Shown here piece by piece: positions 24,966 to 25,295 of a stretch of 64,000 nucleotides of DNA. The DNA lies in sequence record PQ287642.1. One strand, given 5' to 3'. The position numbers were made by a program, and so were the translations under genes. The notes under the pieces are model-generated. The model was not told where the DNA came from. It saw only the letters and a program-made list of their open reading frames with translations, and ran no database searches. Source of the DNA: Pseudomonas phage HHBS36_1. Within the stretch, counting starts at the first letter, position 1. Each line of letters starts with the position of its first letter.

Positions 24966-25295
24966 TTATCTACTATCGATGGACCACCAACGGAGCCTGG
25001 CACGATCCTAGCATCGTCTACAAAGCTTAACCTCCGCTCTTCTCTGTAGCACTTTGACACTAGGACCTTTTACCATCCATCGTTGTTTGATCACACGTTA
25101 CCCAAGAGTAACTCCTTTCGGTTAAGTGATCACTCACGGCCCGTGTAGCGAGAGGTCGACCTAGACTTTACGCCCACTAGTCGATTACTTCGCGGAACCT
25201 ACTCCTAACCGTTATCACCGAAGTGAACCAGGGTCGCAGTATTTGAATCGGGATGCCAGCCTTCTGACACCCCTATCAACCGGGGGAGTTGTTTC
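24966..25295 (-). other. ORF-free, GC-rich, hairpin-dense 330-nt region (candidate structured ncRNA or 3'UTR element)
   Basis: No credible ORF. Local palindromes GTTACccaagagGTAAC, GTGATCAC, GGTCGACC, TCACcgaaGTGA and CCCCtatcaaccGGGG. GC content visibly above its surroundings. Confidence 0.35.

Follow-up and report, generated by a model that had tools for sequence, protein, structure and literature searches.

A conserved RNA structure between the chimallin and RNA polymerase β′ genes of Pseudomonas phage HHBS36_1 and related phages

The chmA–β′ locus and its terminator

The stretch of DNA analysed here, hereafter the window, comprises 64,000 nucleotides of Pseudomonas phage HHBS36_1 (PQ287642.1). 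It is 99–99.8% identical to the Pseudomonas phages BRkr, PA1C, phiLBG22, and PS119XW, and the phage is therefore a Pawinskivirus-like chimallivirus, a jumbo phage of P. aeruginosa. On the minus strand, the chimallin gene chmA (27161→25296, 621 aa), which matches the nuclear shell protein family phrog_4795 with an E of 1e-198, is followed by the gene for the N-terminal part of the non-virion RNA polymerase (nvRNAP) subunit β′ (24903→23437, 488 aa), a match to phrog_2987 (RNA polymerase β-type subunit, E 1e-188). Both ORFs are intact, and between them lies a non-coding spacer of 392 nt (25295→24904), which starts directly 3′ of the chmA stop codon UAA (25296..25298) and extends to the start codon of β′ (24903–24901), whose ribosome-binding site (RBS), AGGAAG, is found at 24914–24909. 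Consensus folding of Pawinskivirus-like and phiKZ-like sequences divides the spacer into three parts, namely module A, module B, and a terminator. The β′ N-terminal gene of the window is uninterrupted, at 488 aa, whereas phiKZ-like phages and one uncultivated relative (L001 1910-3996, which is phiKZ; L006; L030) have a shorter version of 378–437 aa with an HNH endonuclease gene after it.

A sequence-only reading had singled out the interval 24966–25295, which runs from just past the chmA stop codon to the 5′ arm of the terminator, as a GC-rich region with many hairpins, no plausible ORF, and a terminator at its end, and most of this description stands. The spacer contains 11 inverted-repeat pairs of at least 6 nt, and its sense strand folds with a minimum free energy (MFE) of −142.4 kcal/mol (z −4.59), as well as which none of 100 shuffled sequences folded; the antisense strand has a z of −1.14, and 14 of 100 shuffles were as good. 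The longest sense ORF (62–65 aa), which extends over both the terminator and the start of β′, does not occur in phiKZ or PhiPA3, and no spacer ORF is conserved among the window, phiKZ, and PhiPA3. The claim that the GC content exceeds that of the flanking DNA holds on one side: at 0.50, the spacer is above the adjoining 5′ part of the β′ gene (~0.40–0.47 over 24725–24949), as well as above the window mean (0.44) and the other long gaps (0.37–0.46), but below the chimallin gene (0.52–0.60). The terminator, for its part, is real, but the distance from the end of its U-run is 13 nt to the RBS and 24 nt to the ATG, instead of the 20 nt to the RBS that had been given.

Coding sequences named “hypothetical protein” have been annotated over the structured RNA or its counterpart in HPP-Temi (CDS0382/0381; L005 1087-1194, 1340-1528) and Psa21 (gp057; L011 3150-3392), and several phiKZ-like records likewise carry such a CDS over structured RNA. 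Judged by their lack of conservation as ORFs, these calls are probably spurious. In a crude ORF map of the window, ORFs of ≥70 aa are also missing from long stretches at 39134-40021, 51292-51985, 20776-21251, 8192-8624, and 46873-47244.

The intrinsic terminator occupies 24928..24970 on the minus strand and is homologous to the phiKZ transcript end T025. Its core, GCGGCUCC-UUCG-GGAGCCGC, is a GC stem of 8–9 bp with a UUCG loop, and the extended hairpin, GAUA-A-GGCGGCUCC-UUCG-GGAGCCGCU-UC-UAUC (24970–24938), is followed by UCC and seven U residues (24934–24928), so that the transcribed strand carries a G+C-rich hairpin closely followed by a U-run. The hairpin is present in all three MFE structures; a simple terminator scanner missed it because the extension of the stem is bulged. 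In the window, the gene strand holds six sites with a UUCG-capped hairpin, a pyrimidine-rich spacer, and a U-run (5378-5409, 24928-24957, 30233-30264, 41586-41618, 47193-47228, and 53233-53263, all minus), against 0.06 expected, and this appears to be the standard terminator design of the phage. All of the Pseudomonas chimalliviruses examined have a hairpin of this type and a U-run ahead of an RBS, be it that of β′ or that of a small inserted ORF, which makes the terminator an ordinary feature of long standing. The only sequence that competes for its 3′ arm is a 6-nt copy of GGCUCC (24997–24992), which is absent from PhiPA3, and no conserved antiterminator that excludes the terminator hairpin, as in a riboswitch or T-box attenuator, was found.

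Data on the transcription of this region come from homologues. By ONT-cappable-seq of phiKZ, the transcript end T025, classed as “intrinsic” with a ΔG of −16.7 and having the sequence of the chmA–β′ terminator, was mapped to 47888; four start sites that precede chmA (P025–P028) give transcription units ending at it, read-through units continue to T028 across genes 054–059, and between 45583 and 49168 there are zero transcription start sites, gene 55, which is the β′ N-terminal gene of phiKZ, having no promoter of its own (bioRxiv 10.1101/2023.10.13.562163 supplement). Taken together, the end at T025, the read-through units, and the absent start site mean that in phiKZ the element is part of the chmA 3′ untranslated region (3′UTR), that the terminator is leaky, and that expression of gene 55, reported to be essential (PMC12676376), depends entirely on read-through. 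A leaky terminator as the gate to the polymerase operon is established in phiKZ and, by homology, would also operate in HHBS36_1. Since chmA has early and middle promoters, two polymerases meet this terminator (PMC8244752).

No sigma-70-like promoter was detected in 24700–25500, and there is no conserved motif resembling a phage promoter; the TACT at the end of chmA consists of a Tyr codon and the stop codon, and it is absent from PhiPA3. The element lies between the stop codon and the own terminator of the mRNA and has no promoter of its own, which is the position of a 3′UTR-derived RNA. It is not among the non-coding RNA candidates of the ONT-cappable-seq study, which were limited to RNAs of <250 nt with their own start site (bioRxiv 10.1101/2023.10.13.562163), nor among those of the dRNA-seq and Grad-seq studies of phiKZ. 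The only mention of the region that was found concerns PhiPA3, for which eCLIP coverage peaks between chmA and gp54 were reported (PMC11077065); this remark is qualitative, and the peaks could arise because the chmA mRNA as a whole is abundant or because ChmC, an RNA-binding protein associated with the phage nucleus, prefers structured RNA.

Predicted fold of the two modules and its conservation

Module A (161 nt; 25132..25292, minus strand) is predicted to form a four-way junction, a model that draws on RNAalifold together with pair counts, on MFE tests with single sequences, on the MFE structure of PhiPA3, and on the junctions found in phiHQ. The domain is closed by P1, in which 25284–25281 pairs with 25143–25140. 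P2 (25279–25276 with 25246–25243) carries the 9-bp hairpin P2a (25273–25265 with 25258–25250), P3 (25241–25232 with 25210–25200) ends in the UUCG-capped tip P3a (25226–25223 with 25218–25215), and P4 (25193–25188 with 25154–25148) bears the hairpin P4a (25184–25172 with 25166–25156). Two unpaired junction sequences, GGUUCC (25199–25194) and UACA, are both invariant.

Module B (25131–24977, minus strand) is composed of B1, a linker, and B2, and is modelled as a three-way junction with a branched hairpin. The three-way junction B1 (43 nt; 25089..25131), for which compensatory changes are seen in PhiPA3 and HPP-Temi, has the closing helix GAUCAC/GUGAUC and two arms, the hairpin CC-GAAA-GG and the hairpin GUUAC/GUAAC. 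The A-rich linker AAACAA (25088–25083) connects it to B2 (24977..25082), a long branched hairpin of ~105 nt. In all three lineages, the GGUU of the module A junction (25199-25194) is complementary to the invariant AACC of the B1 junction (25124-25119). This complementarity could be a contact between modules A and B; phiHQ is without the module A partner.

Between the window and phiKZ, modules A and B and the terminator differ by 55 substitutions and 9 indel columns. These changes break none of the 107 consensus pairs, while ~11–12 broken pairs per module are expected from random placement, and all of the indels are confined to unpaired columns. Circularity was avoided by predicting the structure from one sequence alone and then testing it on the other, and by this test of pair preservation module A had P≤1e-4 in both directions, whereas module B had P = 0.007 and <5e-5. 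The signal disappears when the pairing partners are slid. Both sides have changed in five pairs of module A and in eight of module B with the terminator, the element being carried by only three deep lineages (Pawinskivirus-like, Phikzvirus, and PhiPA3), so that the covariation rests on few independent events.

The gap of PhiPA3 is far more diverged, with blastn aligning only 19% of it. Folded alone, it gives the same P1–P2–P3–P4 junction with the same junction sequences; in its module A, the tip of P4 is expanded by ~140 nt and the UUCG of P3 is replaced by GAAA. Functional RNAs typically consist of a fixed core with variable peripheral arms. Across the lineages, the unpaired junction sequences GGUUCC, UACA, GAU, and UUAACC are invariant. 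Many of the conserved pairs are G·U pairs, which, along with the strand asymmetry of the fold, argues for selection on the sense RNA and not on the DNA.

Conservation in related phages, which had been proposed as a check on the region, is seen at two levels, as the modules are ~83–85% identical in phiKZ and the architecture is kept in PhiPA3. The flanks have diverged much further from phiKZ, with amino acid identities of 50% for chimallin and 67% for β′, and their four-fold third positions are saturated (36–44% identical). The proteins flanking the spacer in the window are nearer to PhiPA3 (65% and 85%) than to phiKZ, whereas the element is much nearer to phiKZ. Judging from these alignments, the high identity of the element may reflect selection, lateral exchange, or both; as the substitutions preserve the pairs, selection is at work in either case. 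The comparisons show that the chmA–β′ spacer holds a predicted RNA structure under selection, which is organized in two domains.

Spacer layouts in related phages and searches for known families

In both flanking genes, module B, and the terminator, phage phiHQ is 99.7–99.9% identical to the window, but in place of the 161 nt of module A it has an unrelated, structured segment of 305 nt. The junctions of this swap are located 3 nt past the chmA stop codon and at the first base of B1, and hence the replaced unit is exactly the folding domain closed by P1. At the level of sequence, the swap shows that the domains modelled as modules A and B move between phages as cassettes.

The incoming segment of phiHQ (L024 2855-3159) holds a conserved motif of ~130 nt, GTCTGACG…TGACNNGCCAAAGTC…AACTTACGGTGA, with covarying stems. 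The same motif is found in the chmA–β′ gap of the P. syringae phage Psa21 (L011 ~3200-3363) and also in the unrelated Ralstonia phage RP13 (L025 2480-2590), where it lies directly upstream of a tRNA-Leu. It has no match in Rfam and is not called as a tRNA, and from its conservation it looks like a second unannotated structured RNA.

Other relatives have shorter or different spacers. Gaps of 77–108 nt with the terminator only are found in eight of them, namely D6, RVTF4, and six uncultivated contigs, which means that modules A and B are not needed for termination or attenuation; among the uncultivated chimallin relatives, one (L036) has a Phabio-type spacer instead of the short terminator gap. 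Different hairpin-rich spacers of 165–285 nt follow the chimallin stop codon in 201phi2-1 (L003 2092-2300), Phabio (L004 2038-2321), and L036 (3397-3614). Judging from these layouts, the ~330-nt structure is a lineage-specific insert between the chmA stop codon and the terminator.

The spacers of 201phi2-1 and Phabio have the first hairpin, GGGAUC-GAAA-GGUCCC, in common, and in both phages a small ORF is inserted before β′. The one of 201phi2-1, gp106 (L003 2317-2883), located between the chimallin terminator and β′, has a sub-threshold match to Pfam PF25620, the phiKZ major capsid protein family (E 3e-5; 22.8 bits, with a cut-off of 27). A three-way junction in 201phi2-1 (L003 2171-2223) looks like B1, but it reaches only 8.4 bits (E ~8) with R2, the covariance model of B1, and the resemblance is taken as unproven.

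A search with Infernal against Rfam, also among the proposed checks, was run and gave no known family. None of the 4227 models of Rfam 15 matched at the gathering threshold anywhere in the window, and at E≤10 over 24400–25800 only terminator-like or chance matches appeared, far below threshold. At E≤1, there were none in the loci of PhiPA3, phiHQ, Psa21, 201phi2-1, Phabio, and the UViGs. With ARAGORN and Rfam, no tRNA, tmRNA, or tRNA-like cloverleaf was detected in the element. R1, the covariance model of module A, which cannot span the PhiPA3 insertion, found no second copy in the whole window or in 121 kb of related loci. A scan of viral contigs based on chimallin, aimed at distant carriers of the element, returned known phages or chance matches only, as did DNA-pattern scans of viral, metagenome, and genome contigs, in which both metagenome matches and a match in Planococcus were due to chance. 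GGA motifs of the RsmA type are not enriched in the element (7 observed vs. 8.4 expected), and a weak test for CRISPR-repeat mimicry, with four P. aeruginosa repeat sequences, gave a best local score of 8–10 of 28–32. The element belongs to no described RNA family and is absent from annotations and RNA family libraries; it is a new family of structured 3′UTR RNA.

Interpretation and comparison with known RNAs

The explanation that we favor, and hold to be rather more probable than its negation, is that the chmA 3′UTR holds two selected RNA domains that belong to a terminator-ended RNA, which would outlive the mRNA and be bound by protein instead of working as a terminator switch. The ancestral layout would have been the stop codon, a UUCG-capped intrinsic terminator, and the RBS of β′, and the P. 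aeruginosa lineages would have gained, between the stop codon and the terminator, two RNA domains that fold independently of each other. The gap would serve as the 3′ untranslated region of the chimallin mRNA and, in read-through transcripts, as a spacer between chmA and the promoter-less β′. At the leaky terminator, most transcripts would stop and give chimallin only, and a fraction would read into the polymerase operon. After termination, an endonuclease would probably cut the A-rich single strand that immediately follows the stop codon, leaving a structured RNA of ~365 nt that would persist after the body of the mRNA and act as a protein-bound RNA, with ChmC as a candidate partner. This RNA is probably stable. 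Among the three readings proposed from the sequence alone, that of a stable 3′UTR-derived non-coding RNA is the best supported, by the selected structure, its place inside the phiKZ chmA transcripts that end at T025, and the eCLIP peaks of PhiPA3, with the separate, lasting RNA itself as a candidate species.

Instead, the fold could be passive, shielding the chmA mRNA from 3′→5′ exonucleases or separating cistrons, with no independent RNA being made. Its location in the 3′UTR of an early gene with abundant expression, its stable structure with UUCG and GAAA tetraloops, and the different hairpin-rich spacers that 201phi2-1, Phabio, and L036 have at the same place all suit such protection or insulation. 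We nevertheless consider it unlikely, if worth keeping in mind, because the terminator hairpin alone suffices in many relatives and a stability element needs neither the invariant unpaired junctions (GGUUCC, UACA, GAU, and UUAACC) nor the multi-way architecture that has been kept. Improbable, too, is a cis-acting sensor or attenuator, in which the domains would bind a ligand or protein, or act on one of the two phage RNA polymerases, and thereby set read-through in the manner of a riboswitch, T-box, or put element. Relatives keep the gene order and the terminator with spacers of 77–108 nt and no such domains, phiHQ swaps module A for unrelated sequence, PhiPA3 is without the GGCUCC copy, the terminator hairpin forms in every MFE structure, and no riboswitch, T-box, or leader model matched at E≤10. 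These findings weigh against an attenuator even though the element directly precedes a terminator that polymerase has to pass if the essential gene 55 is to be expressed, phiKZ lacks a start site within the gap and shows terminated as well as read-through units, two polymerases meet the terminator (PMC8244752), and the GGCUCC copy could compete for the terminator 3′ arm. The proposal that the region is an attenuator setting the β′:chimallin ratio is accordingly upheld for the terminator, given the terminated and read-through transcripts of phiKZ, and fails for the ~330-nt structure, which the relatives with short spacers do without.

We give very little credence to the view that the element is the neutral remnant of a mobile element, be it a decayed intron or homing-endonuclease gene or recombination junk between co-infecting phages. 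The cassette replacement in phiHQ, the incongruent relatedness of the element and its flanks, and the occurrence of HNH genes and introns nearby in relatives (PHIKZ056 is an HNH endonuclease, and L030 also has an HNH gene) would be in keeping with it. Neutral decay is contradicted by the 107 pairs left unbroken by 55 substitutions and by the strand-specific fold, and neither an intron or ribozyme model match nor a conserved ORF or ORF remnant was found. The footprint of a decayed intron or homing endonuclease, the last of the three earlier readings, is thus abandoned: a group I intron or its remnant is rejected since there is no match to RF00028 or any other intron model at E≤10, the element is placed after the stop codon, and the flanking ORFs are intact, and a homing-endonuclease footprint since no ORF is conserved among the window, phiKZ, and PhiPA3. 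Highly doubtful as well is an element that acts as DNA, whether by binding protein, as a signal for replication or packaging, or as a recombination hotspot of DNA hairpins; it would account for the palindrome-rich sequence and its high conservation, but many of the conserved helices contain G·U pairs and are valid on the sense RNA strand only, the antisense strand folds no better than shuffled sequence, and the region is transcribed within the chmA transcription units of phiKZ.

A more speculative extension, to which we assign a low probability, is that the chmA 3′UTR is a cargo slot for RNA, in which nucleus-forming Pseudomonas phages would place interchangeable structured RNAs behind a gene that ranks among their earliest and most abundantly expressed, and these RNAs would act in trans as effectors of host takeover or anti-defence, or as scaffolds for ChmC. 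The occupants of the slot would be module A, the cassette of phiHQ and Psa21, and the type found in 201phi2-1 and Phabio. If true, it would be the RNA counterpart of the accessory-gene hotspots that phages have for proteins.

In the life cycle of nucleus-forming phages, chimallin and the non-virion RNA polymerase play central parts, and phiKZ and its relatives are model phages as well as candidates for therapy. Between two genes that are essential to them lies a complex RNA fold that is more conserved than either. The element offers a concrete object for questions about the stability and export of phage mRNA, the binding of ChmC, and the ratio of shell protein to polymerase, and the natural cassette swap of phiHQ and the terminator-only relatives are ready-made controls. 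For annotation, the analysis points to several GenBank records in which probably spurious “hypothetical protein” calls overlie the element.

Small RNAs that share the terminator of an mRNA include the 3′UTR sRNAs of enterobacteria. In phages, RNAs that derive from a 3′UTR or share its terminator are exemplified by the 3′UTR_PHIKZ298 RNA of phiKZ and by ncRNA1 and ncRNA2 of PAK_P3 (PMC8545117, PMC10914365). Like these RNAs, the element is non-coding, lies between a stop codon and its own intrinsic terminator, is conserved in a phage group, and, in phiKZ, has no transcription start site of its own. Unlike them, it measures ~365 nt, compared to ~50–210 nt, consists of multi-way junctions instead of one or two hairpins, has no known seed-like single strand, and is here a candidate RNA species.

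With leaky intercistronic terminators that serve as attenuators, the locus has in common a terminator between a gene whose product is needed in bulk (the shell protein) and genes whose products are needed in low amounts (the polymerase subunits), as well as, in phiKZ, the presence of terminated and read-through transcripts; this likeness covers only the last ~43 nt, while the structured 330-nt add-on is absent in many relatives. The large junction-type fold upstream of a terminator and a gene start also recalls riboswitch and T-box leaders. The element differs from these in having no Rfam match and no conserved, mutually exclusive antiterminator, in that ~155 nt of other structure separate module A from the terminator, and in that module A can be replaced by unrelated sequence.

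GOLLD, ROOL, raiA, and OLE, which occur in phages and bacteria, are large structured RNAs of unknown function. The element matches none of their models, is smaller, has a narrow host range, and is situated inside the 3′UTR of an mRNA, not standing alone; like them, it is phage-borne and has many helices in a complex fold, conserved nucleotides at the junctions, and stable tetraloops.
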